NCBI GenBank assembly: GCA_034423235.1
Contig: DAOUIX010000058.1
Coordinates: 10,484-74,483 of the forward strand
Source: Chloroflexota bacterium
Lineage (GTDB): Bacteria; Chloroflexota; UBA11872
DNA length: 64,000 nt
Direction: 5' to 3'
Every line of letters starts with the position of its first letter. The stretch's first letter is position 1. Below the pieces are notes generated by a model, which saw only the letters and a program-made list of their open reading frames with translations, was not told the DNA's origin and did no database searches. This document shows, in pieces, positions 3,222 through 51,731 of this stretch. A program made the position numbers and the translations under genes.

Positions 3222-3253
3222 TTGGCTCGGCCCGAGGGAGGAGTGGCGCGATT

Positions 3254-7323: not shown

Positions 7324-7330
7324 TACGCCC

Positions 7331-12551: not shown

Positions 12552-13702
12552 GTGCGACTTTCCGCCTCCAGGCGGGCGGTTCGGGCCAAGCGGGCAGCCA
12601 GCGGCTTGTCGGTCAGCAGACGAGTGACGGCAGTTGCCACCGCGCGTGGCTCGTCCGGCTCGACCAGCAGCGCGTCTCGCCCATCCTCCAAGACCTCGCG
12701 CATTGAGGGTAAGTCACTAGCCACAATTGGACGCTCCGCAGCCATGTACTCGAAGAGCTTCAACGGGGAGGTGTGTTCGCGCGCGATGATCTGCCGCGCG
12801 CTGAACGGAATCACCGCAACGTCCGCCGCCACCAGGTATTTGCGGGCATCGTTGGGTGGTAGGTGACCCGTGACATGAAAATTCGGCAGGTCGGAGGCCG
12901 CTGCCCTGATGCGATCAAGGTCGGGCGGCAGCCCGCCCACAATGATCCACTGTATGTACGACTCGGCGGTGCGCGCCGCCGCAACGAGCGTGTCCACGCC
13001 CTTCCACGGGTAGAGGTGGCCCAAATAGCAGACGACGGACGCCTCATCCGGAATGCCCAACTCTTCCCGGGCGACGCTACGGTCACGACTCGTAAACGCC
13101 TCGATGTCCACGGCGTCAGGCGCCACGTACAGGCGCTGTGGATCGAATCCAGCATCGAGATACCAGCGCCGCAGGCCCTCGGTAATGGCGATTACCGCAT
13201 CCATACGTCGTGCAGCCCACAGATGCAGGGCTACGGACAAATGCGAACGGGGAACGGTGTGCACTTCAAAACAGAAGCGGGCCGGTTGGCCCACCAGCAG
13301 CCGCAGGACCGTCAACGGCAGCAGGTCGCGGCTGTAAACGACGTTGGGACGCCAGCGGCGCACGACGGTCAGGGCAGCGACGGCAAACGACCACAACTGC
13401 AACAGGTGCGCGACCAGCCTGATTGGACCGTGATTGAGCACTGGCCAGTCGATAGTGACACGCTTGATGGCGTCAATGGTCGGCAGCCCGACGAGGGCAA
13501 AGGTCTTGGGCACGCCGGCATAGACAAACGGGTCGCTCACGGCGCGCATGGCCGCCGTGTTCGCGCGGCGGGCATAGGCGAGCAGAACGGTGGCCCCGCC
13601 GGCGGCGAAGCCCGCGGCCATGTGCATGATCTGCAGCGGATGGGCGCGTTCGCTGGGTATCCGCGCGTTCGCAACCATCACCAGGCGCGGCGGTTCCTCC
13701 AC
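12494..13702 (-). CDS. glycosyltransferase family 4
   Basis: 402 aa. LVMVANARIPSERAHPLQIMHMAAGFAAGG and C-terminal PFSARQIIAREHTSPLKLFEYMAAERPIV. Confidence 0.8.
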   Translation of the reverse strand: MEEPPRLVMVANARIPSERAHPLQIMHMAAGFAAGGATVLLAYARRANTAAMRAVSDPFVYAGVPKTFALVGLPTIDAIKRVTIDWPVLNHGPIRLVAHLLQLWSFAVAALTVVRRWRPNVVYSRDLLPLTVLRLLVGQPARFCFEVHTVPRSHLSVALHLWAARRMDAVIAITEGLRRWYLDAGFDPQRLYVAPDAVDIEAFTSRDRSVAREELGIPDEASVVCYLGHLYPWKGVDTLVAAARTAESYIQWIIVGGLPPDLDRIRAAASDLPNFHVTGHLPPNDARKYLVAADVAVIPFSARQIIAREHTSPLKLFEYMAAERPIVASDLPSMREVLEDGRDALLVEPDEPRAVATAVTRLLTDKPLAARLARTARLEAESRTWTQRAAAIREFLGSAPSS

Positions 13703-13704
13703 GG

Positions 13705-15513
13705 CTAAACCCGATATTCAACACGCACGGTCACACCGACCGTCAACGCGCCGAACTCAACGACACCCCGCCCCTGCCGCCACGGTCCATCGACATGGAT
13801 CCGAAGTTTCCGAGCGGCGGCGGGCAGCCAGTAACGAGCCGAGGACAATGGCACCGAGGCCACGAGCCGATCGCGAACAACTACTTCGGCCCCCTGAACC
13901 TTATAGGTGCGTCGAGTTTGCACACCGGCAAGACCGCGACCGTCGACGCGCGCGACGCCGGATTCAACCGTCAGTTCGTCGTCGGTGACTTCAGCGCGAC
14001 TGTCGACGGCGTGGCTTGACAAGAGCCGGCGGCTCGCCAGCCACATGGGCGGACCAAAGCGGCGCCAGAGAAACTTCAACGCGTAGCGCCATCGGCCCGC
14101 GAGCAGGTGCGAGCGCGTGACGTGCAGGAGGAAGCGCGACTCTCGTAGGTCAAGCACCAGTCGCCAAACCGGCGGCGCCAGCCGCTCTGCCTGAGGCATA
14201 ACCTCCCAGGTTCCTTCGGGAACCGCGGGCTCTGATCGAAAACGCAGCCGATTGCGCCAGCCGTTGCCGGCATTGCCAACGTAGACCAGTCCTCCGCCGC
14301 CAACGCGGCCGCCAACCAGCCGGTCGGACGGGCGCTTGTGTGTCCGAACGAGCGCCAGCACTCGAGAGCCCTCGAGTCTTGCCACTCCAGCGTCCCGCGC
14401 GACGGCTGGCGCCCCTCGACCGGCCGCCGGCGGATTGCTCGGCAGATCATCAAGATCCGCAGCGGCGTGCGCTCGAGCCAGCCAGGCCAGGTCGGCCGTG
14501 TGCATCACCCGGCAGACGAACGCCGGCTCACCTTCCGTGGCATCTATGAGCCCGCCATCGCCGAGTGCTGCCGCGCTCTGAGCTGCAACGCGGCCGGCCA
14601 GCGGCAGCAGCGCGTCTCGCCCATCGGTCGCCAGGACGTACGCGCCGTAGGGCGCCGAGCCGACCTCCGCGTCCGCGTCCCAAAACCACCGCTTGCCCTC
14701 AAACCCCAGCGGAATTACACCGTCGGGCCGGAGCACGAAAGCAAGAAAATCGGCCCCGTCGCGCATTCGGTCTTCGAACGACGCTTCCGCCCCGATGTGC
14801 CGCAGCGCGTACCGCGCGAAGGCCACGCAGCGGCTGTGATAGTAGACGGTCAGGTCGGCGATCCCTTCACTCTCGCCCAGTAACGCCGCATCGCGCACGT
14901 AGGCGAACGAGCCGTCCGACCGCATTTCGGCGAGCGATCGCGCCACCGAGTCCTGCACGGCCCGCGCCCACGTCGGCTCGTCCAGCACGGCCGAGGCGGC
15001 CGCCAGACCCATCGCGCCCCAGAGCCGCTGATTCACCACGGGCTTGTCGATGACGTTGGTCAGCAAATAGGTATCGCAGCACAGGCGGATCGCCTGTTCA
15101 ATGGATCCGCGATCTTCCGCAGCCAGGACGTCACCCGCGTGCAACAGAAGCGAGGCCAGCGCGTCCACGCATTCGCCCGCGTCGATAATGTTGGTGGAGT
15201 TGTTGCGAGGATCGTGAAGGCCCGGGAAGAACACCCAGGCTCCACCGGCGCCGGGGTCGGGCGCCAGGCGTGCCACCACGCGACGAGCGGTACCAAGAGC
15301 TCGTGTGAGATAGCGCTCCTGGTTCGTGTAGGCGTGCAGTGCACAGTCAATCACGATGCTGCGGGCCGACTTACCGGTGTGGTCGACGCGATGCTCAGGA
15401 CACCGCGTGTATCCGTGCGCGTCACGAAGACGTTCGAAGGCCTCGGAGGCCGCCGCCAGCACCCAGCCGGCACGCGGAGTCAGCACGGGGCGCTGAAGAG
15501 TCGCCTCTTGCAT
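13705..15513 (-). CDS. heparinase II/III-like (alpha/alpha-toroid polysaccharide lyase/epimerase-like) protein
   Basis: ORF to 15621, but the ATG at c(15511-15513) lies 4 nt after the acetyltransferase stop (MQEATLQRPVL...). Toroid-like region: NQRLWGAMGLAAA, DGSFAYVRD, YYHSRC. Assignment is by resemblance only. Confidence 0.4.
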   Translation of the reverse strand: MQEATLQRPVLTPRAGWVLAAASEAFERLRDAHGYTRCPEHRVDHTGKSARSIVIDCALHAYTNQERYLTRALGTARRVVARLAPDPGAGGAWVFFPGLHDPRNNSTNIIDAGECVDALASLLLHAGDVLAAEDRGSIEQAIRLCCDTYLLTNVIDKPVVNQRLWGAMGLAAASAVLDEPTWARAVQDSVARSLAEMRSDGSFAYVRDAALLGESEGIADLTVYYHSRCVAFARYALRHIGAEASFEDRMRDGADFLAFVLRPDGVIPLGFEGKRWFWDADAEVGSAPYGAYVLATDGRDALLPLAGRVAAQSAAALGDGGLIDATEGEPAFVCRVMHTADLAWLARAHAAADLDDLPSNPPAAGRGAPAVARDAGVARLEGSRVLALVRTHKRPSDRLVGGRVGGGGLVYVGNAGNGWRNRLRFRSEPAVPEGTWEVMPQAERLAPPVWRLVLDLRESRFLLHVTRSHLLAGRWRYALKFLWRRFGPPMWLASRRLLSSHAVDSRAEVTDDELTVESGVARVDGRGLAGVQTRRTYKVQGAEVVVRDRLVASVPLSSARYWLPAAARKLRIHVDGPWRQGRGVVEFGALTVGVTVRVEYRV

Positions 15514-15517
15514 AGTT

Positions 15518-16123
15518 CTATGTCCGCTTGCGAATGACGCGCGCGGGCATTCCGCCCACAATGGCAAAGGGCGGCACATCGTCCGAAACCACGGCGCGCA
15601 CCGCCACCACGGCCCCGTCACCTATCGTCACGCCCGGCAGCACCACGACGTCGCTGTAGAGCATCACGTTGTCGCCGATCGTCACCGGCGCCGTCTCGAT
15701 AGGCGCGTCAAGGGCCGGAATGTCCCGGCGATCCAGCACGTGCCGATGGGTGTAGATCGCCGCGCGGCGACCGATATGGGTGCGCTCTCCCACCGTGATC
15801 GCACCTGTGCAGTCAAGACGGGCTTCGGAAAGAACTTCCGTCCCGGAGCCGATCGCCAACTCGGCGCCCGGCGCGTGACCCGGCTCCCAGCCGGCCCGGA
15901 CGTCACGCTTGATGCGCACGCCGCTGCCCAGCGTCAGCTTCAGCCCGGCCGGAAAGTAGAAGCGACTGTCCACCCGGAGCCCCTCGCCGCACGTCACACC
16001 GTACGCGCGCCGAAGCAGCGCCGCGCGTACGAGCCACAGCAGGCGTTGGTAGGGCGGAAGAACCGGTAGGTCCGGCAACTGACCGACGAGCCGCGCCAGT
16101 TGACGAGAAAGGTCCAGGTTCAT
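15518..16123 (-). CDS. left-handed beta-helix (hexapeptide) O-acetyltransferase, WcaF/NeuD-like
   Basis: 201 aa. Hexapeptide repeats ...ITVGERTHIGRRAAIYT...VTIGDNVMLYSDVVVLPGVTIGDGAVVAVRAVV; ATGA overlap with the next gene. Confidence 0.8.
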   Translation of the reverse strand: MNLDLSRQLARLVGQLPDLPVLPPYQRLLWLVRAALLRRAYGVTCGEGLRVDSRFYFPAGLKLTLGSGVRIKRDVRAGWEPGHAPGAELAIGSGTEVLSEARLDCTGAITVGERTHIGRRAAIYTHRHVLDRRDIPALDAPIETAPVTIGDNVMLYSDVVVLPGVTIGDGAVVAVRAVVSDDVPPFAIVGGMPARVIRKRT

Positions 16124-17259
16124 GATTGCGTCTGAGCCTCGGTGACCGACGGAAACTCCGGTCGCGCGCCCATCCGCAGTGCCTGATAGACGGCCGCCAT
16201 CCGCTCCGCGAGTCCCGCTGCGCCATGCTTTCGGACCACGTTGGCACGCATCCGGTCCACCAGGCCCTGCCGCGAATCCGCGTCCAAGCTCAGCAACCGC
16301 CCCAATCCGGCGGCAAGCTCATCGCTTGAGCTTGCAACCAGGGCATCATTTGAATGCTCGCCGAGCACGCTGCGGTAGGCGCTGTTATTGGTGATCAGCG
16401 GCGTGGCACACGCCAGGGCCTCCAGGCCCGTCTTGTCCAGCGCCGGTTGCGCCCGCCAGTTCACAAAGACATCCAACGATCCATAGAACTCTGCCATGGC
16501 GTCACCGCGTACAGCGCCCACGAACTCCACCGCGTTACGCACGCCTAGCGTATCGGCGAGACGCACCAGTTCGTCTACGTAGGCCCGATCCGAGGAATAG
16601 AAGGGTTCGCCCGCTATGCGCAGTTGGGCCTTCGGAAAGGCCCCTCGGCGCATCTCCGCCAGTGCCCGGATGCCCGGCTCGAACCCCTTGAGCGGTGTCA
16701 GGCGCCCGGCCATCCCGATCACCGGGCCGACGTCGATGCTTCGCTCATCTGGTGGACAGAACCTTGCGGTGTCAATCCCGTGGCCCAGCACGAACGCTCG
16801 CTCGCTGGGGATCGGATAGCTGTCGGGCGAAGCGGTGACCGCGGCGTCAACCAGGCGGTTGGCGCGCCTGAGCATGGGCGTCAAACCGTGACTCGCATAC
16901 CAGAGAACAAGCTTGGTGGACGTGACCCTCGCCAGGGGCCACAGCGCGACGGCGTACGCCGGCACCATATGGGCCAGGATGGCATTGACGCGGCCATCCA
17001 GCATGAGCCGCGCGCCGACCACGCCAAAGGCCAGCGCGGCTGCCCAGCGTGATCTCCCGCGTTCCCGGCCGAGGCCGTGCACATGCACGTTCGACGGCAG
17101 ATCGACGTCGCCGACGCGTGCGGCCAGCACATGCACGGCCTGTGCCTGTCGCGCGCATTCCTCGGCCCAGGTGTGCGCAACGGCGAGATTCGTGCTGGAG
17201 CGATCGAGTTCCTGCGTCACGAACAGCAGGCGCAAATCGCCGCGTGTGCGGTCGCTCAT
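16120..17259 (-). CDS. glycosyltransferase family 4
   Basis: 379 aa. LRLLFVTQELDRSSTNLAVAHTW... Confidence 0.75.
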   Translation of the reverse strand: MSDRTRGDLRLLFVTQELDRSSTNLAVAHTWAEECARQAQAVHVLAARVGDVDLPSNVHVHGLGRERGRSRWAAALAFGVVGARLMLDGRVNAILAHMVPAYAVALWPLARVTSTKLVLWYASHGLTPMLRRANRLVDAAVTASPDSYPIPSERAFVLGHGIDTARFCPPDERSIDVGPVIGMAGRLTPLKGFEPGIRALAEMRRGAFPKAQLRIAGEPFYSSDRAYVDELVRLADTLGVRNAVEFVGAVRGDAMAEFYGSLDVFVNWRAQPALDKTGLEALACATPLITNNSAYRSVLGEHSNDALVASSSDELAAGLGRLLSLDADSRQGLVDRMRANVVRKHGAAGLAERMAAVYQALRMGARPEFPSVTEAQTQS

Positions 17260-18386
17260 GCCGCGTCTCCCTCGGCCAGGCGACGATAGGCGTCGGCATA
17301 CGCACCCAGCACCGCGGTTTTCTCAAATTGCGCGGTAGCAGCCCGCGCTGCGCGTCCGACCGGCTGCAGCCCATCGGAGTCGCCTAGCGCTGCGCTCACC
17401 AGGGCCGCGCCGGCCTCGGCATCCCACGGCAGCAGCCAGCCGTTCGCGCCGGTCTCGATGGTTTCCGGCATTACGCCAACCGGTGTCGCAAAGACGGGCG
17501 TGCCGCAGGCCATGGCCTCCAGGCACACGCGCGGCCCGCCTTCGCTGAGCGACGGCGCGATGAGCGCACGCATCCGCCGATACAGATCAGCCAGATCGGC
17601 CGGACTGTCCAACCAGTCGACAAACGTGACACGGTCCCGGATGCCGGAGCGGGCGAGCCGGCGTCGAACCGCACTGGCTTCCGGCCCCCGGCCGGCAATC
17701 ACGAACGTCGCTTGGGGGTCCTGCGACGCAACGTTGGCGAAAACGCGCGCCACATAACTCAGGTTCTTGTTTGCCACCAGCCGCCCGACGAATCCCAGGG
17801 TGACATCCTTCTCAGCCTCGCCAGGCGTGAAGACATGCCGGTCGATGTAGGCCGAGGGCAACACGAGAATTTGCTTGGCCGGCACGCCCCATCGCGCCAA
17901 CAGGCTGGGAACTTCTCGCCGATTCACTACGCGAATGGCAGCCGCCCGGCGCGCCATGCGCGTGACATAGACGCGATAAAACTGCTGGGCCAGTGGTTCC
18001 CACCACTGCGCACGCTGCGGGTGACCCGGTACGTGGTGAATTTCGCTGACGTACGGCGTCCGGCTGTGGTGGGACAACCACGCAGCCGCTCGCCCATTCG
18101 CGAAGATCCCGTAGTCGTGGCTGACAATCAGGCCATGGGCGTGGCGTCGCAAGAGTTCAGCGCCGCGGCGTCGCAGCCAAGCCGACTGGCGCAGTCGCGA
18201 AACCGGCGCCGGCTCGACGCAAACGTTCGGATACGGCTTGACGGTCCGCGCACCCTCGGCGCGAGGCGCCAACACGTCGACTCGATCGAACGTCGCGGAA
18301 AGCCCCTGAAGGGTCGTGTGAAAGGGCCCGCGTCGCCCCGCGGTAACGTCTCGGTCACCGCTGAACATCAGCAGCTTCGCGCTCAC
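17256..18386 (-). CDS. glycosyltransferase family 4
   Basis: 376 aa. C-terminal SLSEGGPRVCLEAMACGTPVFATPVG is the E-x7-E GT4 motif. Confidence 0.75.
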   Translation of the reverse strand: MSAKLLMFSGDRDVTAGRRGPFHTTLQGLSATFDRVDVLAPRAEGARTVKPYPNVCVEPAPVSRLRQSAWLRRRGAELLRRHAHGLIVSHDYGIFANGRAAAWLSHHSRTPYVSEIHHVPGHPQRAQWWEPLAQQFYRVYVTRMARRAAAIRVVNRREVPSLLARWGVPAKQILVLPSAYIDRHVFTPGEAEKDVTLGFVGRLVANKNLSYVARVFANVASQDPQATFVIAGRGPEASAVRRRLARSGIRDRVTFVDWLDSPADLADLYRRMRALIAPSLSEGGPRVCLEAMACGTPVFATPVGVMPETIETGANGWLLPWDAEAGAALVSAALGDSDGLQPVGRAARAATAQFEKTAVLGAYADAYRRLAEGDAA

Positions 18387-19582
18387 GGACGGAGGGGTGA
18401 CGCAGAGCCAGTGACCTGGGAGAGTATCTCCATCGTTTCGTCCACCAGCCGATCCCAGGCAAAGTGATCAAGACCCTCTGACCCGGCACGAACAAGACGC
18501 GCCGCCAACTCCCGGTCGGTCAGCAGGAGGTTCACGGCTTCCACAAAGGCCTGGTGGTCACCGAGCGGCGTCAGCAGCGCGTTGTGCGTATGCGTCAGGA
18601 TTTCACGGTTTCCACCAATGTCGGTCGTAACGATCGGCGTTCCAACGACGCGCGCCTCCACCAGCGTGTGCGAGAGACCTTCGTACGACGTGTTCAGCAC
18701 AAACACGTCGGCGGAGCGCAGGTACAGGCCCACGTCGCGGTGCGCAATCCGTCCGACAAACCGAACGCGGTCGCCCAGGCCGAGTTCGGCGGCGAATCGT
18801 TCCAAGGCCGGCTGCTCCGGTCCGTCGCCAACGATGGCCAGCACGGCGCCGTTCGCGAATTTGGGCACCATGCGAATCAGGTCGTCAACGCGCTTCCACC
18901 CGTAGAGCCGCGACACGGTGCAAACAACCGGCCCCTGAAAGCCAAGCTGCCGCTTCGCTTCCTCTCGCACAATGTCGATCTCGGGGATCTCAGTCAACGC
19001 GTTGTGGACCACTCGAATCTTCTCCGGGCCGGCCCCCCAGCCGCGCACGAACGCGCCCACATACCCGCTGGGAACAACGATCACGGTGGCCAGGGCCGTG
19101 TACATCCGCTGGATGAGTTGGAACGCCCGTATCAAGAACCCGTGACGAGTTCGCTGAAACTCCTCAATCCCCAGTGACGTCATACCTCGCCGGTGCGCGG
19201 ACTCCCAAGCCCAATCGCCCACGATCTTGAGGACGCGCGGTCGACCAGCCAGCACGGCAGCCAATGTCGACGGCGCCTCGATACCGTTGATGTACACGAT
19301 GTCGGACTGTAGGGCGGCTCGCCATGTATGCCACCAAACCAGGACATAGCGCAGCGGGATGGGAGTATTCCAGGAGACGCGCACGATTGGGAATGGCGGG
19401 CGCACCAGCCCTTCGGGATCGTCGGGGCAGACCACGGCCCGAACCGTGTGTCCACGGTTGTGCAGGGTCAGCGCAAGGTTGTAGATGTGCGTTGCAGGCC
19501 CGCCGACCGTGGGCGGAAAGATGTTTGAAACAAAGGTGATGCGCATCTCTCGGACGCTAGCACCGGTCTCGGCAGGGGACAA
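18383..19582 (-). CDS. glycosyltransferase family 4
   Basis: 399 aa. MRITFVSNIFPPTVGGPATHIYNLALTLHNRGHTV. Confidence 0.8.
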   Translation of the reverse strand: MSPAETGASVREMRITFVSNIFPPTVGGPATHIYNLALTLHNRGHTVRAVVCPDDPEGLVRPPFPIVRVSWNTPIPLRYVLVWWHTWRAALQSDIVYINGIEAPSTLAAVLAGRPRVLKIVGDWAWESAHRRGMTSLGIEEFQRTRHGFLIRAFQLIQRMYTALATVIVVPSGYVGAFVRGWGAGPEKIRVVHNALTEIPEIDIVREEAKRQLGFQGPVVCTVSRLYGWKRVDDLIRMVPKFANGAVLAIVGDGPEQPALERFAAELGLGDRVRFVGRIAHRDVGLYLRSADVFVLNTSYEGLSHTLVEARVVGTPIVTTDIGGNREILTHTHNALLTPLGDHQAFVEAVNLLLTDRELAARLVRAGSEGLDHFAWDRLVDETMEILSQVTGSASPLRP

Positions 19583-19633
19583 CGGCTCTCGCGGCTCGCG
19601 CCAAGCAAAGGCGCCGTGCGCTCCGCCTATCGA

Positions 19634-20755
19634 TCAGTGGTCGGGTGGCTGCGTCCCGTTGGTTGCGTGCGTGCCGTTGGTTCCCGGCTGAAGCACCGGC
19701 AGCGGATCCCCGGTCACCACGCCGCGGGCACCGGTAAAGAGGTTCCAGGATGAACCGCCGTCCTGCCAGATTGCGTCACACCCGCGGCAGAGCTTGTAAT
19801 CGTCCAGCTTGCCGCTGACGTGTGCCTCCCGAATTGCTCGGTACTCCGGGTTGTTCCAGATTTCAAGCAGCGACTCATTGGCCAGGTCGCCCATGATCTG
19901 GTCCTCGCCGAAGTCGGCGCAGCAGGACGGAACCTTGCCGTCCCAGTAAATCGCCATGGACTTCCAGAGCCAGTTGCAGGGGTAGTAGTTGGGACCATGC
20001 GGACGCGCGGTGTAGAAGTCGGACGAGTCCATTTGCCCGGCCCAGCCGTGCGCCCAGAACGTATCCCACTCGTCCACCGGCAGTCCGTCAAATCGCTGGC
20101 GAAAGTGCTCGGGTATGACCGGCGCAGCGCCCTTGGGAAAGCTTGAGTCCCAAAGCTGAATCACCTGCATCACGAAGTACGGCTTCGGACCGGAACGCTG
20201 CTTTCTCGACTCAAGCAGACGTAGCACACGTTCGAGCGTGCGGTCGAACTGCGCGCCCTTGCGCATGACTTCGTACTGTGCGGGTTCGCCCGAGTCAAAG
20301 CTGATCGTCAGCTTGCTCGGCGCCGCGTCCAGCAGCTGCTCGATCTTCTCGTCGCGCAGCAGAGTGGCGTTGGTGTTGATGTGGGCGGCGATTCCGGCGC
20401 GTTCGCAGACCTCAATCATCTCGTAGATGTCTTTGTGCATCAGCGACTCGCCGCGGAAGAACAAATTGGCTTCCCGCACCGACGGCTGCGCCTCGTCGAT
20501 GATCTTCCGGAACAGGCCCATGTCCATGAACGGCTTTTGCTTTTTGAGTTCGTCGGCGAGCACGCTCTGCGGACACATGGGACAGCGCAGGTTGCAGGCG
20601 CTAGTCGGTTCGATATGCAGTTTGATCGGGCCGTACGGCAACTCGGTTGATCCGCGCATCCAGTGGTACGCGAAGCGACCGAGCGAGGGGCGCAAGATCG
20701 CCCGGTGCCGTCGATACTTGACCAGCAGGTCTTTGGCCTGGCTGATCGAGTTCAC
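19634..20755 (-). CDS. radical SAM / SPASM-domain enzyme
   Basis: CNLRCPMCPQS is the CxxxCxxC AdoMet-radical motif. C-terminal Cys cluster YPCNW...KVPSCCADFGED...KLCRGCDAIW looks like a SPASM/twitch domain. GTG start at c(20753-20755) overlaps the Trm112-like TGA (GTGA); the ORF-track N-extension (to 20878) would overlap the upstream gene by 127 nt and is rejected. Confidence 0.8.
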   Translation of the reverse strand: MNSISQAKDLLVKYRRHRAILRPSLGRFAYHWMRGSTELPYGPIKLHIEPTSACNLRCPMCPQSVLADELKKQKPFMDMGLFRKIIDEAQPSVREANLFFRGESLMHKDIYEMIEVCERAGIAAHINTNATLLRDEKIEQLLDAAPSKLTISFDSGEPAQYEVMRKGAQFDRTLERVLRLLESRKQRSGPKPYFVMQVIQLWDSSFPKGAAPVIPEHFRQRFDGLPVDEWDTFWAHGWAGQMDSSDFYTARPHGPNYYPCNWLWKSMAIYWDGKVPSCCADFGEDQIMGDLANESLLEIWNNPEYRAIREAHVSGKLDDYKLCRGCDAIWQDGGSSWNLFTGARGVVTGDPLPVLQPGTNGTHATNGTQPPDH

Positions 20756-20982
20756 GAGCCGGAGGCCTCTCCGGTCTCGGGCGGGATCGCGTCTTCCCAC
20801 AGCATGTTGGGAATGCCGTCCTCCACTCTGTACCGGTAGCCGCAGACCGTACAGACGAGGTGTTCGCCCTGAATGCACAGCACGCCGTCATCGCGCGGAT
20901 GCGCGTCGTTCACGCAGCGCAAGATCGCCAGGAAGTCGTCCGGAATGAGCGGCGGCGCGGACGTCGCGTCCGTATCAGCCAT
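20752..20982 (-). CDS. Trm112/YcaR-like (DUF343) zinc-ribbon small protein
   Basis: 76 aa. LIPDDFLAILRCV...HLVCTVCGYRYRVEDGIPNMLWEDAI matches the Trm112p-like fold (compare E. coli YcaR ...ELICK..AFPLRDGIPVLLE). Confidence 0.7.
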   Translation of the reverse strand: MADTDATSAPPLIPDDFLAILRCVNDAHPRDDGVLCIQGEHLVCTVCGYRYRVEDGIPNMLWEDAIPPETGEASGS

Positions 20983-21011
20983 GAGTGTCGCCTGCTCCCT
21001 TCACTTGGAAG

Positions 21012-23258
21012 CTAGAGCATGAAATGTAGTGTGTCAAAGCTAATCAAGAGCGCGGCGAACGCGCCAATCGCGGCAAAGCGAACCGACCACAACCGGTGAT
21101 CGGACGGCCAGATGCGGCCAGCCAACCCAATCCACGCGCCGAGCGCGGCGAATTGGAGGGCTAACAGCAGACCGATCACCCAGACAACCACCGTGGGATA
21201 GGCGAGGAATCCCTCGATCAGGCTCAACGACCAGAAGTCCAGCCCCAGGCCGTTTTCTGGCCGCGGCGGAATCGCGTCGATCCCAAACCTGGCCCACGGC
21301 GTGCGTCCCAGAGCGTCGGCCAGCCAGTCCGTGCGATCCGGTGTTAGCAGATTGACCGCGTCCGCTCGGAGAAGCCAGGCGTGCGCCAACAAGGGTGAGA
21401 ATTGGTAGGTGTAGAGGACAGCCGCGAAATCGCCCTCGGGCTGAATCGACGACCATGGTTGGTAGTCAGCGCCACCGTAGATGGCGCCCTTAAGAGGAAC
21501 GGCGCCGGCGACTTGCTGCTGAAAGAGATCCAGGTAACCCGCGAAATCCTTCGACACCCCCATGAACTGCACGCCGGAGCTGAGAAGCACTACGCCGGCC
21601 AATGCAGCGCCCGGGAGCCAAGTGCGTGACCGCTCAAGCACTCGCTCGAACAGTGGCGCACCAATAATGATGAGCAGCGGCAGCGACGGCACGAGGTATC
21701 GCGGCCCCCAGGCGTTGCCTCCGTACCACACCTGCTTGCGACTGTAGAGCAAGGCGTAGGCAACGGGAATCGCGATAAACACCAGCGACCGCCAGCCATG
21801 GCGCCGCACGAACCAGGGCAGAACGGGAAGCGTGACCAGCAGAATTGGGTTGTACCAGAGCACGCCCTTGCCCCAGCTTGTAATCAGCCCGCCAAGTCCC
21901 AGCCCAAACGGCAGTTCCAGCCAGCCGCGCTGCAGACCGCCGATCAACTCGCTCACGTACAGCAGGTGGAAGTCAAACAGCAGGGCGGCGACGAGTAGCG
22001 CTGGCGGCACGACGCCGATAAACGGCGCGGAGAATAGAAGCGCCGGCCGGATCGACGCTCGAAGGGCCTCGCCCCAGGTGCGCCCGGACTTTGCGTTGAC
22101 CAGCAGACCAATCAAGAGGATTGGCACGACAATGATGCTGACGTACTTGGTAAGCACAGCGGCGAAGGCCGCCAGGCCAGCCAGCGCCACGTAGCGCAGC
22201 CGCCCCGTGGCGCCGTAGACAAGCAAGAGCCACACCGCCGCTAGAATCAGCGTTGTGACGACCGGTTCGGAGAAGTCGAACTTGGCATACGGCCAGGCCA
22301 TCGTTCCCACGGCGTAAATGAGCGCACCGACGATGGCAACGCGGTCGCCGTACCGCAGCCGGCCGAGAATCCTGTAGACCAGCACCACGCCAACGGCTGT
22401 GATGAGCGCATTAGCGGCAGCGACCCAGATTCGGCGGAAGAACTCGCGATTCTGGCGCTCCGACCAGACACGTCCTACTCCGGGTCCATCAAGCCACGCC
22501 CCGTCCGGCGTTCGAAGCGCCAGGCCGTCGACGTAGAAATTGCCGTCCGGCTGCAAGTAGGTGATGCGAGCCGATGCGAGCTGGCGCGGCGGGTCGAACT
22601 GCCACGTGGCCCCGTAGTAGTACGCGCGCGCGTTGCCAATCTGACGGGCCACGGGAGGGGGTTGCTCATGCTGTATCCGTACGCGCACATCGCCTCGGTC
22701 GTAGGCCCATTCAGCCGTTTCGATGCCAACGCGAATCGGGTGCTGGCTGGTAGCGCCGTCCGCGTCGGTCAGGCGCAACCGCGCGATCTCGGTTCCCTGC
22801 GAGAATCCAGCGCTAAGTCCACTGTGGGAAAGCAAGGCGAGCCGGTCGTAGAGGCCGGGTTCAATACTCAGGTCGATTTCGTCGGATACCCCGGGACCTG
22901 ACGTTCCACCCAACGGAGGGAAATTGACAAGCAGCACATCATGCTCACCGAGCGGTATCCGGTCTCGCTGTGGCGCCGCTTCCGCCAAGGGCTCGGCCAA
23001 CGCAACGAATGGCATGAATGCCGTGGGCAGACCCACACCCCAGCGTGAGAAGTTTCGATTCTGGTCTCGCAGATAGGCGTGACCTGGATCGATCACGACG
23101 CTCTTCGCCATCTCGAACGCGAAGGTGCCGTCGGCGCTGTAGCCACCGCCGTTGCGGGCGGCGCCCATGCTGAGCGCATATAACGCGCACGCGAAGAGAA
23201 ACAGCAGGAACGCGGGACGGGAGTGCCCCCATTGCATGAGGCGCTGCCGGCGCGTCAC
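21012..23258 (-). CDS. GT-C-like (ArnT/PMT GT39/GT83-type) polytopic membrane glycosyltransferase with an inserted ~180 aa extracytoplasmic domain
   Basis: 748 aa. TM1 plus a short acidic loop, a soluble insert (aa ~95-275), then >10 TM helices (VYRILGRLRYGDRVAIVGALIYAVGTMAWPYAKFDFSEPVV...) resembling GT-C cores. Confidence 0.45.
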   Translation of the reverse strand: MTRRQRLMQWGHSRPAFLLFLFACALYALSMGAARNGGGYSADGTFAFEMAKSVVIDPGHAYLRDQNRNFSRWGVGLPTAFMPFVALAEPLAEAAPQRDRIPLGEHDVLLVNFPPLGGTSGPGVSDEIDLSIEPGLYDRLALLSHSGLSAGFSQGTEIARLRLTDADGATSQHPIRVGIETAEWAYDRGDVRVRIQHEQPPPVARQIGNARAYYYGATWQFDPPRQLASARITYLQPDGNFYVDGLALRTPDGAWLDGPGVGRVWSERQNREFFRRIWVAAANALITAVGVVLVYRILGRLRYGDRVAIVGALIYAVGTMAWPYAKFDFSEPVVTTLILAAVWLLLVYGATGRLRYVALAGLAAFAAVLTKYVSIIVVPILLIGLLVNAKSGRTWGEALRASIRPALLFSAPFIGVVPPALLVAALLFDFHLLYVSELIGGLQRGWLELPFGLGLGGLITSWGKGVLWYNPILLVTLPVLPWFVRRHGWRSLVFIAIPVAYALLYSRKQVWYGGNAWGPRYLVPSLPLLIIIGAPLFERVLERSRTWLPGAALAGVVLLSSGVQFMGVSKDFAGYLDLFQQQVAGAVPLKGAIYGGADYQPWSSIQPEGDFAAVLYTYQFSPLLAHAWLLRADAVNLLTPDRTDWLADALGRTPWARFGIDAIPPRPENGLGLDFWSLSLIEGFLAYPTVVVWVIGLLLALQFAALGAWIGLAGRIWPSDHRLWSVRFAAIGAFAALLISFDTLHFML

Positions 23259-23282
23259 GCGAAGAATTGGCCGCGAGCCCGT

Positions 23283-24863
23283 CTACTCACCGACAAGCTC
23301 GCTCACAAGTGCGTGCAGTCGCGTTCGAAAGGCTGATGTATTGAACCGTTCGCTCGACTTCCTGGCTTGCCGTGCCATGTCGGATCGCATATCCAGGTCG
23401 CGTACTAGATCCCAACTCCGCGCTCGAAGCTCGGCGGTTGATGACCAGAGAAAGCCATCGTGTCCGTCCCGAACCAGTTCGGGCAGCCCGCCCTGATTTA
23501 GCACCACCGGGACGGCCTCATTGGCCATTGCCTCGACGACGGAAATGCCGAAGTGCTCAAACTTCACCGGGTTGCGTTGTACTTGTTCACCGTACCCTGC
23601 GGCGTGCCAGTAGATCTGCGCTTCAGCGTAGAAGCGTTGCAAGTCCGCGAACGGCGCATCGATGGCGAATTCAATGGGATGGCCTGCGGCGCGACGCCGC
23701 AGATCGTCGGAATAGGCCAGGTCGATGTCCCGGCGGCTCTGGTGCCCGGCGAGGCGGAGCGTCCACCCGTCCAGGCCATCGCGGCACATCCGTTTGAATT
23801 GCTCGATCATCACTCCGTGCTTCTTCTCGTGCGTGCCGCGAAAGAAGCGCCCAACGCTCAGGATCGTTCGAGTCTTGGCCACCGGAGTGGCCCAGCTCGT
23901 GTCCACCGGTGGATAGAGCAGCGGTCCGCTGCGTCCCCAGTAGACCTCCATCCACGTGCGGCTGTATTCGGAGATCGGGCAAATCAGGTCGTAGGTATCG
24001 AGATGATCGAGCGAGTAGAAGGCTGGCAGCCCTTCCAGTCGCAACCCGAGTTCTCGGAACATTCGGCGAAAGAGCAACTCGTAGAGAAGGTGTCGCGGGT
24101 GACGCACTCGTACGTCGGTGACGGCCAACCCGACTTCACGGTTGTCAGCCTCGGCCACCCGATCGGTGGGATTGAAGGTCGGTGATTCCAGCGTCAACTC
24201 AACCATGCCGTTCCGCACGTATCGGCGGTCCAGATTGATACGCCAGGCCTCAAAAGCGCCTGGACGCGGCGCGAAGGAGCGCTCGGCGATTGGCGTTCCC
24301 TCCGCCAGGCAGCGCACCGGAAGACTCGCGTCCGGACGGAAATTCCCCGCCACAATCTCAATGGGCACAGGACGCCTTCCACCCGGCACGCGCAGCCGGA
24401 TCGACGCTTGGTCGGTGGCGTAGCGAAACCAGCCCCGGCCCAGCTCCTGCACGTCGTAGAAACCGTCGCTCCACTCCGGCAGCAGCAATTCCCGTGTAAG
24501 GAATCGACCGACAGCCTGACGAAGCCTCGCCTGCCAGCTCCGATCGATCGGAGACGGAAAGAGGACAAGCATCAGGCTGTGCGCCGCAGCCGACGGTTGG
24601 TTGGTCATGAACGAGGCGTTGACAAACAGGTCGTACTCGCGCGTGACCTCGGCAAACCTGTTTGGCGGCAGCGCCGGAATCACACGAATGCCGATTCCCT
24701 CCAGGCTCATGTGCAGCGCATCAGCCAGTTCATCGCGCCCGATCGGGCGGTGCGTGATGAGCTCGGTGTCAAACCGCTCGGCCAGAATGCGGGCCGCCAT
24801 GACGGCGTGTCGCTCGCCGCCACCCTTCTGATGCAGCCAGCGGTTGTAGACCGCCGCCTTCAC
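23283..24863 (-). CDS. glycosyltransferase family 4 (long form)
   Basis: GTG start at c(24861-24863) overlaps the GT2 TGA (GTGA), giving (M)KAAVYNRWLHQKGGGERHAVMAARIL. C-terminal EHFGISVVEAMANEAVPVV is the GT4 signature. The 62-aa N-extension in the ORF track is rejected. Confidence 0.75.
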   Translation of the reverse strand: MKAAVYNRWLHQKGGGERHAVMAARILAERFDTELITHRPIGRDELADALHMSLEGIGIRVIPALPPNRFAEVTREYDLFVNASFMTNQPSAAAHSLMLVLFPSPIDRSWQARLRQAVGRFLTRELLLPEWSDGFYDVQELGRGWFRYATDQASIRLRVPGGRRPVPIEIVAGNFRPDASLPVRCLAEGTPIAERSFAPRPGAFEAWRINLDRRYVRNGMVELTLESPTFNPTDRVAEADNREVGLAVTDVRVRHPRHLLYELLFRRMFRELGLRLEGLPAFYSLDHLDTYDLICPISEYSRTWMEVYWGRSGPLLYPPVDTSWATPVAKTRTILSVGRFFRGTHEKKHGVMIEQFKRMCRDGLDGWTLRLAGHQSRRDIDLAYSDDLRRRAAGHPIEFAIDAPFADLQRFYAEAQIYWHAAGYGEQVQRNPVKFEHFGISVVEAMANEAVPVVLNQGGLPELVRDGHDGFLWSSTAELRARSWDLVRDLDMRSDMARQARKSSERFNTSAFRTRLHALVSELVGE

Positions 24864-26221
24864 GACATCTCGATGAACGGACGTAGTTCGCGACCGTCCA
24901 AAGGAGCGAGGCGCGATTCGATGCCACGCAGCTGCCACGTCCCGGGCCACGCACTCGCCGAGCTGCCCAGCGCGCGCAGCCGCGCGAGAACCAGGCGCGC
25001 CGCGTGCGCGTTGCGGCGGTCGACCGCGTGCCGCGCGTCGCCAAATGCAAACTTGCAAGCGGCAGCCGCGTGTCGAGCCACCCAGATCCAGGGCGCGTTT
25101 TTGGCGAGCATTCGCAGCTTGCCGAACTCAACATTGCATACGAACCCTGGCGACCACTCCCGGCTGAGCGCGGCGTGCTCGTGGCGCACAACCGAGTCCG
25201 GCTCGAACCAGAATCGCCAGCCGCGGCGTCGAGCGCGCCAGGCCAGGTCGGCATCCTCGTAGTACATAAATATGCCGTCATCCAGGAATCCGAGGGCCTC
25301 CAGCATTGCGCGACGGTAAAGCACGGCGGCCCCTTTGCAGGCAAAGACCTCGCACGGTTCGCGAAAGGCTGGGCCGTCCCATGCCGACCACGGTACGCCG
25401 CCGAGCAGGTTGGTTCCCCGATCACGCATTGACCCGTCATTCAGCGGTGCAATCCCTGCGCATTCAATCGCGGGTTGCGCCAGCCGGGCAATGAGTTCGG
25501 CGGGCAGGCCAAACCGAAGAGTCGAGCGAGTGCCTGGGGTCCGAGCCTCACCCAGGACGTGGTCGCCGGCCAGGACACGTACCGACGCGTCTGCCCGATC
25601 ATCGCCTGCCTCAATGTCCAGACGCAGCGCTACCGACGTTGAGGCAACCGGCACGGCAAGCTCGGCGCGCGCCTCGGTCCATCGAAATAGCTGGCCGTAC
25701 GCGTCGACCTCCTGGCTAAAGGCGCCACCAGTCACGTCGGCCCTGCCGTGGTTGGCATTGGCGCCGTAGAGGCGAATGCCTAACTGCCGGGTATCAAGTT
25801 CTGAGGGCACAAAGGTCGGGACGGTCAGTGTTACCGGCAATCGGTCATGCTGGTGCAGCAGCTTGGCCCCGACGCCACCGGCCAGCGGGTCGCGTTCGAG
25901 GCGCGCCACCAGCGGCTCCAGCCAGTCTGGCTCAACCTCAGTGTCGGGGTTGAGCAACCCAAGGTACGGCTCGGCCGACGCGCGCAGCGCGCGGTTATTG
26001 CCCCGTGCAAAGCCCAGATTTGCGCCGTTCTCAATCAACTCGACTCCAGGAAACCCCTGCTCAACGCGGGCTGGCGACCCATCGCTCGACGCGTTGTCCA
26101 CGACGGTCACGCGCAAATCGGAATACCGAGTAGCCAGCAACCGTTCAAGGCAGCGTTCGATGCGCCCGGCGCCGTTGTAATTAAGCACGACCACCCGAAC
26201 GGGCGGCAGGCCGGCGGTCAC
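24860..26221 (-). CDS. glycosyltransferase family 2 (GT-A)
   Basis: 453 aa. VRVVVLNYNGAGRIERCLERL...VTVVDNASSDGS...NLGFARGNNRAL matches the GT2 DXD region. Confidence 0.8.
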   Translation of the reverse strand: MTAGLPPVRVVVLNYNGAGRIERCLERLLATRYSDLRVTVVDNASSDGSPARVEQGFPGVELIENGANLGFARGNNRALRASAEPYLGLLNPDTEVEPDWLEPLVARLERDPLAGGVGAKLLHQHDRLPVTLTVPTFVPSELDTRQLGIRLYGANANHGRADVTGGAFSQEVDAYGQLFRWTEARAELAVPVASTSVALRLDIEAGDDRADASVRVLAGDHVLGEARTPGTRSTLRFGLPAELIARLAQPAIECAGIAPLNDGSMRDRGTNLLGGVPWSAWDGPAFREPCEVFACKGAAVLYRRAMLEALGFLDDGIFMYYEDADLAWRARRRGWRFWFEPDSVVRHEHAALSREWSPGFVCNVEFGKLRMLAKNAPWIWVARHAAAACKFAFGDARHAVDRRNAHAARLVLARLRALGSSASAWPGTWQLRGIESRLAPLDGRELRPFIEMS

Positions 26222-27924
26222 TCCACCCGGATCGAGCGCACAGCGATCCCAAGCGGTCGAGTGTCGGTGTCCAGACCCACGGTGGCTGGAACCAATGCGT
26301 CGTCGACTTCAATCACGAGTTCGTGCGTTGTTGGCGAGGTCACTGGGTCCAGCGGGATCACCAGATCCTCAAAGTCCATGCCATGAAGCCGAAACGTCGC
26401 AATATGTCGCCCGTCAACGCGCACCCGGCCCTGGGCCTGCGCGCGGCCATGCAGCGGACGACAGGCGGACAAGACCAGCGCGCCCTGGCCGACATCCTGA
26501 CGCAGGTAGGCCACGGCTCGTTCGCTGGTCCACCGCACGCGCGGCGGCCAGTCTTCCGCCGGAAACCAGCCTTCGCCCAACCACTCGGCGTCGCGCGCGC
26601 CCATGGCCAGATGTTCGGGCGGAGGCGCCCACAACGGGCCAGCCGGTTCGGTGAGCATGTCCGGCTGCGCGATCGGCGAGGACTCGGTGCGCAGTTCCCC
26701 ATCGGGCGGAGCCAAGGCAACTCGCCACTGCGACGGCACCACGGTCACGCCGCGCTGGCTGGCCGCGGCCTTGCCAACGAAAAACGTCATGGCAACCGGC
26801 CACATGTGATACGGGTGCAGTCGATCATCAGACGGCCAGACGCCCAGCGACAGCTGATAGCTGCCCGGCCCGAGGGGCAACGGCCCCAGCGAGCACTCCA
26901 CGCGCGTGCGGCCAGGCTGCACGGCGGTTGGTCCCGGCGTGGCGGCCGTCGACGTCTCGTGCATGAGCAGGCCGTCGCTGCGCCGGACGGCACAGCCGAC
27001 GACGACATCGTCCAGATAGGCGTCGGATTCCAGATCCAGGTGCAGGCGCAGGACACCACCGGGAAGAAAAGCGTAGCTCTCGGCGCCGGTTGCGGCGTCG
27101 GTGGCCGTCGCCGCGCGAATTCGAAGCCTCTCGCCGCCGAGTTCGGGTGTGGGCTCGTCGCGCTCGGCTGCCGTCACGGTCGCCGCGCCACGCATGTACT
27201 GAAGGTATTGCTGGATCACGTCGCGCGGATCGCCAAGCGCCTGAATCTCGCCTCGGTCGATCCAGAGCACGCGGTCGCAGAAGCGGCGCACCTGGATCGG
27301 ATCGTGGGAAACAAACACCAGCGTGCGGCCGCGTGCCTTGATCTCCGCCAGCGCTTCGTAGCACTTGGCCGTGAACCGCGCATCGCCGACCGCCAAGACC
27401 TCGTCGATCAGCAGGATGTCGGGGTCGACGTTGATGGCGATGGAGAAACCCAGACGCATAAACATCCCGGACGAGTAGTGGCGAACCGGCGTGTCGATGA
27501 AACGCTCGAGCTCCGCGAAGGCCACGATGCGGTCGTAAAGCTGCCGCATTTCGTGGCGCTCAATACCGAGGAACGACCCATTCAGAAAGATGTTCTCGCG
27601 GCCCGTCAGGTCCGGGTGCATGCCGGCGCCCAGTTCAAGCAGACCGAAGACCTTGCCGTGCGCAACCACGTCGCCGGACGTCGGCTCGATCGTGCGTGCC
27701 AGCAGTTTGAGGATTGTGGTCTTGCCAGATCCGTTCGGTCCGATGATCCCCAGCGTCTCGCCGGCAGCTACCTCAAGGTCAACCCCGTCAAGCGCCCAGA
27801 ACTCTTCGTGCTCGATCGGTCGGCGGCCGAGCAGAGCCAGCGCCATGCCCTGCCACGTCCGCGCTGCCTCGTGCCGGATCCGAAATCGCTTGCGGACCTG
27901 TCGGAGTTCGATGGCGGCAGGCAT
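26218..27924 (-). CDS. wzt: ABC transporter ATP-binding protein Wzt/TagH-type with ~300 aa C-terminal glycan-binding extension
   Basis: 568 aa. Walker A GPNGSGKTT, signature YSSGMFMRLGFS, Walker B LLIDEVLAVGD, then a long C-terminal beta-rich domain. Confidence 0.85.
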   Translation of the reverse strand: MPAAIELRQVRKRFRIRHEAARTWQGMALALLGRRPIEHEEFWALDGVDLEVAAGETLGIIGPNGSGKTTILKLLARTIEPTSGDVVAHGKVFGLLELGAGMHPDLTGRENIFLNGSFLGIERHEMRQLYDRIVAFAELERFIDTPVRHYSSGMFMRLGFSIAINVDPDILLIDEVLAVGDARFTAKCYEALAEIKARGRTLVFVSHDPIQVRRFCDRVLWIDRGEIQALGDPRDVIQQYLQYMRGAATVTAAERDEPTPELGGERLRIRAATATDAATGAESYAFLPGGVLRLHLDLESDAYLDDVVVGCAVRRSDGLLMHETSTAATPGPTAVQPGRTRVECSLGPLPLGPGSYQLSLGVWPSDDRLHPYHMWPVAMTFFVGKAAASQRGVTVVPSQWRVALAPPDGELRTESSPIAQPDMLTEPAGPLWAPPPEHLAMGARDAEWLGEGWFPAEDWPPRVRWTSERAVAYLRQDVGQGALVLSACRPLHGRAQAQGRVRVDGRHIATFRLHGMDFEDLVIPLDPVTSPTTHELVIEVDDALVPATVGLDTDTRPLGIAVRSIRVE

Positions 27925-28014
27925 TTAGACGCTGGACTCCCTTCGCGGGCCTAGACTGGCCACGCGCCGATAATGATCGGCTTGCGGCCGGCACCTGACC
28001 GAGAGGAACACGCG

Positions 28015-28476: not shown

Positions 28477-28600
28477 CCAGCGCCCGGCGCCGAGCGCGCG
28501 CTTCGGACTTGCGTGGAAGGCGGCGTGCGGTGCGCGCTGCGTTTCGGCGGGCGGTCTCGGATTCGTCCGAACCATGCTTAGTCGGGCATCCGCATGCGCA

Positions 28601-51728: not shown

Positions 51729-51731
51729 CGG

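Follow-up and report, generated by a model that had tools for sequence, protein, structure and literature searches.

A Trm112-like gene paired with a predicted twitch radical SAM enzyme gene in a glycan operon of Chloroflexota

A coupled gene pair in the middle of a glycan operon

The analyzed 64,000-nucleotide stretch of a Chloroflexota genome (assembly GCA_034423235.1, contig DAOUIX010000058.1), referred to below as the window, contains a long minus-strand glycan operon, in the middle of which two adjacent genes encode a 76-amino acid (aa) protein of the Trm112/UPF0434 family and a 373-aa radical S-adenosylmethionine (SAM) enzyme. An earlier note on this DNA had described them as a translationally coupled pair of open reading frames (ORFs). 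Inspection of the sequence and Pfam matches confirmed that both genes are real and have the positions given there, with a GTGA overlap of four nucleotides. The pair comprises the following features.

20752..20982, minus strand: 76-aa ORF of the Trm112/UPF0434 zinc-knuckle family (Pfam Trm112p match, profile comparison with PDB, homolog clusters, ratio of nonsynonymous to synonymous substitution rates, dN/dS)
19634..20755, minus strand: 373-aa radical SAM enzyme with a predicted C-terminal twitch domain (Pfam Radical_SAM and SPASM matches, AlphaFold2 model, Foldseek)
20752..20755, minus strand: GTGA overlap, GTG start of the radical SAM gene on the TGA stop of the Trm112-like gene (read from the sequence)
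20766..20772, minus strand: Shine-Dalgarno-like motif GGAGAGG inside the Trm112-like ORF, 10 nt 5' of the radical SAM start (sequence)
20573..20596, minus strand: radical SAM cluster motif C54-x3-C58-x2-C61 (CNLRCPMC), invariant in 86 aligned homologs
19778..19978, minus strand: predicted twitch auxiliary-cluster ligands C260-x12-G273-x4-C278 ... C323-x2-C326, invariant in 86 sequences
20690..20755, minus strand: clade-specific N-terminal extension of the radical SAM enzyme, approximately residues 1-22, MNSISQAKDLLVKYRRHRAILR, basic and predicted to be helical (family hidden Markov model, HMM, and structural model)

The mechanically delimited ORF of the radical SAM gene covers positions 19634..20878 of the minus strand; we assigned its start to the GTG codon at 20755..20753, which overlaps the upstream TGA stop codon at 20754..20752. 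This start is considered real because of the GGAGAGG motif in front of it, because the homologs all begin at the same 'MN...' position, and because the start codon there is ATG in several clades. The minus-strand gene run from 868 to 28653, in which the pair has a mid-operon position, is unbroken, and no excess of promoter- or terminator-like sites was found around the pair. The co-transcription and translational coupling of the two genes described in the earlier note were supported.

Conservation of the pair

The locus sample was obtained by a one-genome-per-species scan, which provided 80 loci, and by protein look-up for further loci; HMMs of the two proteins were then run against all sources. 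The ortholog clade of the enzyme comprises 27 loci with 48-95% identity, nearly all of them labelled as Chloroflexota and one from a metagenome-assembled genome (MAG) labelled as Actinobacteria. A Trm112-like ORF adjoins the radical SAM gene in 26 of the 27 ortholog-clade loci and in none of the 64 loci of remoter homologs, and the pair was likewise obtained when the search was started from the Trm112-like protein. In the window and in 20 of the other 26 ortholog-clade loci, the small ORF immediately precedes the radical SAM gene and overlaps it by 4 nt. Other geometries include an upstream position after a 116-nt gap (L012), a downstream position after approximately 40-100 nt (L009-L011 and L081), and an upstream position on a contig with frame problems (L082).

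Four arrangements of the surrounding genes were distinguished. Arrangement A is of the window type with full synteny (L001-L005 and L085-L088). In arrangement B (L006-L008, L083 and L084), the pair follows genes for Wzm, Wzt, glycosyltransferases of the GT2 and GT4 families, a methyltransferase and a GT-C glycosyltransferase, and the operon ends at the radical SAM gene. Arrangement C (L012-L015, L089 and L090) consists of a housekeeping or unrelated gene, then the pair, then orthologous GT4 genes, and in arrangement D (L009-L011 and L081) the pair stands alone beside ruvCAB and a CPBP protease gene. In L001-L008 and L083-L088, the GT-C ortholog immediately precedes the pair; the ortholog of the downstream GT4 gene follows the radical SAM gene in L001-L005, L012-L015 and L037, and a GT4 gene is also present there in L085-L090. 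The order Wzm-Wzt-GT2-GT4-GT-C-pair(-GT4...) is kept down to 49% identity. The neighborhood check in other genomes that the earlier note had called for was thus positive, with glycan genes beside the pair in three of the four arrangements. In arrangement D, the pair lies outside any glycan cluster, as judged from the 10-kb flanks examined; complete genomes with such a lone pair are OZ244145, OZ242272 and OZ253463. Since the pair persists in this arrangement, the pair itself, and not its glycan context, is the invariant unit.

Pairing coincides with a distinctive N-terminus of the enzyme. Approximately 22 N-terminal residues (MNxxxxAxxLxxxxRRHRAxL) are present in all 27 ortholog-clade members, to which the family HMM aligns from position 1-2. 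In the 64 remote homologs, the alignment starts no earlier than position 8 and typically at about 23. Judging by its sequence and distribution, this extension may be a docking element for the Trm112-like protein.

Small partner genes are easily lost in annotation. The Trm112-like ORF of L089 (7627-8004) is absent from the public gene call, which has a 64-aa ORF of another frame in its place; the apparent lack of a partner in this locus was rejected after a stop-to-stop HMM scan found the ORF with the usual 4-nt overlap. Natural fusions of the two proteins were found neither among the radical SAM homologs nor among the Trm112 homologs. A candidate fusion of the radical SAM enzyme and a GT4 protein (P0085, L082) is an artifact, with the GT4 gene split in two and the radical SAM gene truncated. 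The same contig has a Trm112-like domain and the radical SAM enzyme in one frame without a stop (9247-10719), which is seen in that contig only and most likely reflects a frameshift-prone assembly and not a true fusion; the close relatives of this Trm112-like domain are all standalone proteins of 51-109 aa.

The radical SAM enzyme

The 373-aa protein matches the Pfam families Radical_SAM (61.1 bits, cut-off 29.5) and SPASM (60.5 bits, cut-off 21.5). Twitch domains bind one auxiliary cluster through four cysteines that follow the radical SAM core, CX9-15GX4C and a distal CxxC, whereas SPASM domains bind two auxiliary clusters through seven cysteines, CX9-15GX4C ... CX2CX5CX3C ... C. The only invariant cysteines in our alignments of 16 and 86 homologs are C54, C58, C61, C260, C278, C323 and C326. 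The first three are the predicted SAM-cluster ligands and agree with the motif of the radical SAM superfamily (PF04055); the other four form the twitch pattern, C260-x12-G273-x4-C278 and C323-x2-C326, which corresponds to the first half of the SPASM motif plus the distal CxxC. The CX2CX5CX3C segment with the ligands of a second auxiliary cluster is absent from the homolog alignments. Of the profile searches proposed in the earlier note, those with Radical_SAM, SPASM and Trm112p all gave matches, the last one marginally. The protein is therefore very probably a twitch radical SAM enzyme, with a SAM cluster and one predicted auxiliary [4Fe-4S] cluster.

The AlphaFold2 model of the enzyme is confident, with a predicted local distance difference test (pLDDT) score of 89.7, and its best PDB match in Foldseek is BtrN (4m7t, E-value 2e-13, template modeling score, TM(target), 0.74), followed by SuiB, BlsE, DesII and anSME; the matches listed are radical SAM enzymes and also include SkfB and PqqE. 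Sequence searches of PDB likewise matched BtrN, as well as BlsE at an E-value of 6e-9. BtrN, the 2-deoxy-scyllo-inosamine dehydrogenase of the butirosin pathway (PDB 4M7T/4M7S), is the founding twitch radical SAM enzyme. It shares with the window enzyme a radical SAM core and one auxiliary [4Fe-4S] cluster, and we count its carbohydrate-like substrate as a further likeness. Residues 273-329 of the window enzyme align to BtrN without gaps in HMMER, so that C278, C323 and C326 match BtrN C187, C232 and C235; C260 precedes C278 by 18 residues, the same spacing as that of BtrN C169. These four BtrN residues are its auxiliary-cluster ligands. The two enzymes are only approximately 16% identical, and that of the window is about 120 residues longer, with the basic N-terminal extension and an insertion at approximately 200-255; moreover, BtrN belongs to an aminoglycoside cluster, whereas the window enzyme is encoded in an envelope-glycan operon together with a Trm112-like partner. 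BlsE (cytosylglucuronate decarboxylase, 7VOB) and DesII (8HZY) act on nucleoside- or nucleotide-linked sugars, and their presence among the top PDB matches shows that sugars are among the substrates of this superfamily branch; however, they differ in chemistry and auxiliary-cluster content, lack a Trm112 partner, and belong to secondary metabolism.

The earlier note had presented the protein as a radical SAM/SPASM enzyme, of a kind classically found among peptide maturases or cofactor enzymes, and this needs correction. SuiB, PqqE, SkfB and anSMEcpe belong to the same superfamily branch, match the SPASM family and have comparable Foldseek E-values. However, these enzymes carry two auxiliary clusters with the seven-cysteine pattern and usually a peptide-binding domain such as the recognition element (RRE) of ribosomally synthesized and post-translationally modified peptide (RiPP) pathways, and they are encoded close to a precursor or sulfatase gene; the window enzyme has none of these features. 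Helices were modeled at residues 4-12 and 23-34; since these two short helices are all that the N-terminus contains, the model has no RRE domain. A single BtrN-type auxiliary cluster and the lack of an RRE make the classical peptide maturase framing unsuitable. Neither the RiPP maturases, with their leader-recognition domain, nor the two-cluster anSME group is an appropriate class for the enzyme; the sole adjacent small ORF has a predicted Trm112 fold, and no sulfatase, protease or peptide exporter was found among the approximately 37 Pfam-scanned window ORFs of at least 150 aa. A reading in which the enzyme modifies a peptide or protein, with the 76-aa protein or another peptide as the substrate, draws on the SPASM match, the SuiB, anSME, SkfB and PqqE structural matches and the variable tail of the small protein, and is hardly credible given the single auxiliary cluster, the missing leader-binding domain, maturase cut-offs in NCBIfam that were not approached, and a conservation pattern of the small protein that follows the Trm112 fold and not a core peptide.

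No NCBIfam equivalog reached its cut-off, the best being W_rSAM_matur (97 bits, as compared with a cut-off of 380), and we rejected assignment to any named family of that collection. A cysteine-donor epimerase of the NeoN, HygY or EpeE type was judged less likely: C279 is replaced by Gly, Ser, Thr or Pro in some members, and the lack of any invariant non-ligand cysteine argues against the thiol-donor mechanism of these enzymes.

The Trm112-like protein

The Pfam Trm112p match of the 76-aa protein is marginal (22.3 bits, cut-off 22); NCBIfam Trm112_arch is matched at an E-value of 1.8e-7, which is under the cut-off of that model. The profile of its clade retrieves from PDB the Streptomyces Trm112 homolog 2KPI (E-value 5e-5), then eukaryotic and archaeal Trm112 and UPF0434 structures. 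Jackhmmer searches tie it to canonical Trm112 sequences of the 'LLEILVCP...YPI.DGIPVML' type beside the orthologous enzymes of other clades, where the partners are solid PF03966 matches. A total of 46 homolog clusters were returned, with 59-89% identity across the whole alignment and lengths of 46-93 aa. In comparisons with two orthologs, the dN/dS ratio was 0.27-0.30. With this ratio and the 26 paired loci, the concern raised in the earlier note that the small ORF might be non-coding or unconserved does not apply; the ORF is a real gene and, as judged from its sequence, a divergent member of the Trm112/UPF0434 family.

The zinc-knuckle signature of Trm112 proteins is [C/D]PX[C/D]...CX2C (PMC5372719). 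In the window protein, the first knuckle is atypical (C23-V-N-D26, without proline and followed by H28; CVNDAH as compared with the usual CPxC), and the second is C44-T-V-C47-G; C23, H28, C44 and C47 are invariant in the window clade. The second knuckle, CTVCGYRYRVEDGIPN (residues 44-59; 20800-20853, minus strand), bears a striking resemblance to the N-terminal knuckle of clostridial rubredoxins, and rubredoxins are also matched by the clade profile at an E-value of approximately 4e-3. Given these matches, the invariant potential ligands and the need of radical SAM enzymes for a one-electron donor, we considered the small protein as a rubredoxin-like metal protein that passes electrons to the radical SAM cluster. 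However, the number of cysteines per partner protein varies among the paired clades (four, two or one, with about two in L006-L008 and one in L009-L011), so that a conserved metal or redox role is unlikely. The best sequence and fold matches are to Trm112/UPF0434, and we regard the electron-donor explanation as very improbable. The tail of the protein is variable, and its conserved residues are those of the Trm112 fold.

In both sequence and fold, the 76-aa protein is closest to bacterial UPF0434/YcaR proteins (2KPI, 2JS4, 2PK7 and the LpxK-annotated 2HF1), from which the window clade is divergent, as its low Pfam score illustrates. Genes of this group often lie near envelope-glycolipid genes, for example in the order lpxK-ycaR-kdsB in Escherichia coli, and none has been reported beside a radical SAM enzyme. 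The earlier note had stated that the Trm112 fold normally serves class I methyltransferases, which is too narrow for bacteria, where the function of these proteins was described as obscure in a 2017 review (PMC5372719) and where we found coupling to other genes. In L092-L096 (approximately 3800-5950), generic Trm112p genes of 57-58 aa, which belong to other lineages, overlap the end of a LarC-type (Ni_insertion) gene by 4 nt and precede a gene for a 245-aa GT2 glycosyltransferase, which suggests that non-methyltransferase partners may be common for the Trm112 fold.

The glycan operon of the window

The pair is part of an operon-like minus-strand run of approximately 28 kb with the following members outside the pair.

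868..28653, minus strand: enclosing one-strand glycan operon (Pfam scans; synteny with L001-L005 and L085-L088)
27925..28653, minus strand: Wzm-like gene
26218..27924, minus strand: Wzt gene with a Wzt_C domain
21012..23258, minus strand: 748-aa PMT_2-like GT-C membrane glycosyltransferase, directly upstream of the pair after a 29-nt gap (Pfam PMT_2, 32 bits)
18383..19582, minus strand: GT4 glycosyltransferase, directly downstream of the pair after a 51-nt gap (Pfam Glycos_transf_1, 127 bits)
13705..15621, minus strand: 638-aa protein without a Pfam match
9924..12551, minus strand: YfhO, GT-C-type membrane protein
7331..8800, minus strand: Wzx-like flippase
4321..5142, minus strand: class I methyltransferase

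In the order of transcription, the Wzm-like and Wzt genes are followed by genes for GT2, GT4 and the 748-aa GT-C glycosyltransferase, the pair, three GT4 genes, a hexapeptide acyltransferase, the 638-aa protein, GT4, YfhO, GT4, the Wzx-like flippase, and finally more GT4 genes and the class I methyltransferase. Of the flanking genes, both described as GT4 in the earlier note, the downstream one belongs to this family and the upstream one is the PMT_2-like GT-C protein. Pfam analysis detected 14 glycosyltransferase-like genes in the operon, including 11 of the GT4 type, one GT2 and two GT-C-like genes. The run combines ABC-type export genes (Wzm/Wzt) with a Wzx-like flippase and two GT-C-type proteins, a mixture that suggests a polymer made via one route and decorated outside the membrane via another. 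The position of the 638-aa protein is kept in the syntenic loci, where it has approximately 600 aa; in L087 and L088, it gave only a weak alginate-lyase-like match.

Outside the operon, the window has a housekeeping content, including genes for CTP synthase, purA, pyrimidine genes, recN, tlyA, hisD and a BatA/VWA operon; the latter is a BatA/VWA/DUF58 'aerotolerance'-type operon at 49086-54979 on the minus strand. Rfam and tRNA scans of the window yielded no matches.

Glycan genes around the wider enzyme family

An exhaustive HMMER search returned 486 clusters (50% identity) at E-values of 1e-30 or lower, among which the paired clade accounts for about one representative. The neighbors of the remote homologs are mixed and include genes for GT2 and GT4 glycosyltransferases, NDP-sugar (nucleoside diphosphate sugar) epimerases/dehydratases, a DegT aminotransferase, methyltransferases and other radical SAM enzymes. 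Two long family members are fusions with glycosyltransferases. P0357 (MDP2921174.1, Candidatus Omnitrophota, 33% identity, 746 aa), found in two assemblies (L097, 3136-5376; L098, 2956-5196), joins a PMT_2 GT-C domain to a radical SAM-twitch region through a K/R-rich juxtamembrane linker, within a cluster of DegT, the fusion, a methyltransferase, GT2, a second methyltransferase and Wzy_C. The order of its domains mirrors the window order of GT-C, Trm112-like and radical SAM genes, and the fusion implies that its radical SAM domain is cytoplasmic and membrane-tethered. P0345 (L099, 571-2766) is a 731-aa GT4 and radical SAM-twitch fusion, whose neighbors encode a GH10 protein, a Wza-like exporter, a PP-binding protein and a Wzx-like flippase.

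These neighborhoods and fusions link the enzyme family to glycan-assembly genes, and the statement in the earlier note that radical SAM/SPASM enzymes are atypical of such loci needs correction, since at the genomic level genes of this family are not rare there. On the same sequence-derived grounds, the enzyme of the window probably has a glycan-related role.

At the loci of Aminicenantes-type homologs (approximately 37% identity; L091, 5275-8978, and nine of L016-L080), the radical SAM gene is preceded by a gene for a KsgA-like RrnaAD methyltransferase, with the order GT9-GT2-RrnaAD-radical SAM in L091; a Trm112-like ORF is absent from these loci.

Proposed function and alternative explanations

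We propose that the two genes form a conserved module, in which a BtrN-like twitch radical SAM enzyme is accompanied by a Trm112-like protein and translational coupling would keep the two stoichiometric. The enzyme would be placed at the cytoplasmic face of the membrane, where its 5'-deoxyadenosyl radical would remove a hydrogen atom from a sugar carbon, the substrate being a sugar linked to a nucleotide or to polyprenyl phosphate, or else the lipid-linked glycan. A BtrN-type oxidation with the auxiliary cluster as the electron sink would give a keto sugar, possibly followed by epimerization, dehydration or deoxygenation, and the modified unit would be used by the neighboring glycosyltransferases, notably the GT-C protein encoded immediately upstream. 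The Trm112-like protein would stabilize or activate the enzyme, by analogy with Trm112-methyltransferase holoenzymes, and may dock on the basic N-terminal extension. This composite of a membrane-peripheral sugar-modifying enzyme with a dedicated Trm112-like subunit, feeding the glycan machinery, is offered tentatively, with a confidence somewhat short of even. As to its parts, the chances that the Trm112-like protein is the enzyme's own subunit seem about equal either way, and a lipid-linked substrate is rather doubtful. A still more specific version, with an obligate Trm112 subunit and a holoenzyme that radically modifies a polyprenyl-phosphate-linked sugar at the cytoplasmic face and thereby makes the donor for the adjacent GT-C protein, is unlikely.

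Several observations weigh against the proposed module. The substrate and chemistry of the enzyme are purely inferred, and the Foldseek scores for SuiB and anSME are near those of the sugar enzymes. The AlphaFold2 model of the 76-aa protein is of low confidence (pLDDT 59); its top Foldseek matches are all UPF0434/Trm112 proteins, with non-significant E-values of 0.09-0.8. Each glycosyltransferase fusion is a single representative with approximately 33-35% identity. The coincidence of pairing with the N-terminal extension may simply go back to one common origin of the clade. In L037 (MAG of Thermoflexus hugenholtzii JAD2, around 3537-3713), the sole ortholog-clade locus without an adjacent Trm112-like ORF, the enzyme retains the extension, and its partner may have been lost or may have its gene at another site. 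In arrangement D, no glycan genes were found in the 10-kb flanks examined. Class I methyltransferase genes occur in the same clusters, namely in the window operon (4321..5142) and in L083 and L090, where one is located two genes upstream of the pair. Moreover, the sole partner proposed so far for a bacterial Trm112 homolog is a class I methyltransferase, as predicted in a 2026 preprint (10.64898/2026.07.15.738315).

The last two points favor the explanation that best survives beside the proposed module, in which the small protein activates a methyltransferase, either the class I enzyme of the operon or a genome-wide set of clients as a hub, and is merely co-expressed with a radical SAM enzyme that acts alone on a sugar. 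Methyltransferase activation is the canonical function of Trm112, a hub in archaea and eukaryotes. The known holoenzymes (Trm9, Trm11, Mtq2 and Bud23 with Trm112; Haloferax Hvo_0019-Trm112, 6F5Z) resemble the pair in that a SAM-using enzyme is accompanied by a small zinc-knuckle protein of this family, which it presumably needs; the same would apply to the predicted mycobacterial ML1347-MtrP, in which Rv1684/ML1347 is predicted to activate MtrP in envelope biogenesis (10.64898/2026.07.15.738315), a context shared with the window. Trm112 sequences of arrangement C are also close to generic bacterial Trm112 proteins. However, the client in these holoenzymes is a Rossmann-fold class I methyltransferase, whereas the adjacent candidate client in the window has the partial TIM barrel of radical SAM enzymes. 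The immediate neighbor of the small gene is the radical SAM gene in all 26 paired loci, mostly with the 4-nt overlap, and never a methyltransferase gene; this adjacency survives inversion of the gene order and relocation off the glycan cluster, and no methyltransferase was seen among the annotated neighbors at the relocated site of arrangement D. Coupling of generic Trm112p genes to LarC and a GT2 gene elsewhere also speaks against an exclusive methyltransferase role. We consider this explanation unlikely.

A non-glycan, housekeeping-type role of the module, for example in cofactor, lipid, RNA or protein modification, with the operon position as a lineage-specific accident, appears improbable. 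It would accommodate the pair beside ruvCAB, the CPBP protease gene and unrelated genes in L009-L011 and L081, the terminal position of the pair in the operons of L083 and L084, and the ksgA-like genes adjoining the Aminicenantes homologs. However, the glycan context in three arrangements extends down to 49% identity, the GT-C and GT4 fusions lie within glycan clusters, no housekeeping NCBIfam equivalog was matched, and the Aminicenantes copy is itself in a GT9-GT2 operon. The earlier note's own caveat of a housekeeping enzyme with an unconserved glycan neighborhood was accordingly not borne out.

Thus, the proposed two-gene module remains our preferred explanation. As the earlier note surmised, the pairing does not correspond to a characterized system. 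A radical SAM gene in a glycan locus was mentioned in passing for a Brachyspira plasmid block (PMC4267127). In the literature searches, we found no paper joining a radical SAM enzyme with a Trm112 partner, no such system under twitch and polysaccharide or under twitch, epimerase and sugar, and no biochemical characterization of a radical SAM enzyme from a glycan locus; none of the curated families found describes the pair. To our knowledge, no twitch or SPASM radical SAM enzyme has been characterized in Wzx- or ABC-transporter-dependent envelope glycan assembly.

Implications

The conserved and coupled pairing with a radical SAM enzyme provides a testable alternative client for bacterial Trm112 proteins. 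Homologs of the enzyme are widespread in envelope glycan loci, and its reaction could reveal a new sugar modification and a new means of tailoring lipid-linked sugars in little-explored phyla such as Chloroflexota, Omnitrophota and Aminicenantes. If the most specific version of the proposal were true, the enzyme would be the first client shown for the Trm112 fold that is not a methyltransferase, and a bacterial Trm112 clade would for the first time have a function assigned to it; the pair would also provide a radical route to lipid-linked sugar tailoring, by keto-sugar formation, epimerization or deoxygenation, in envelope glycan assembly.

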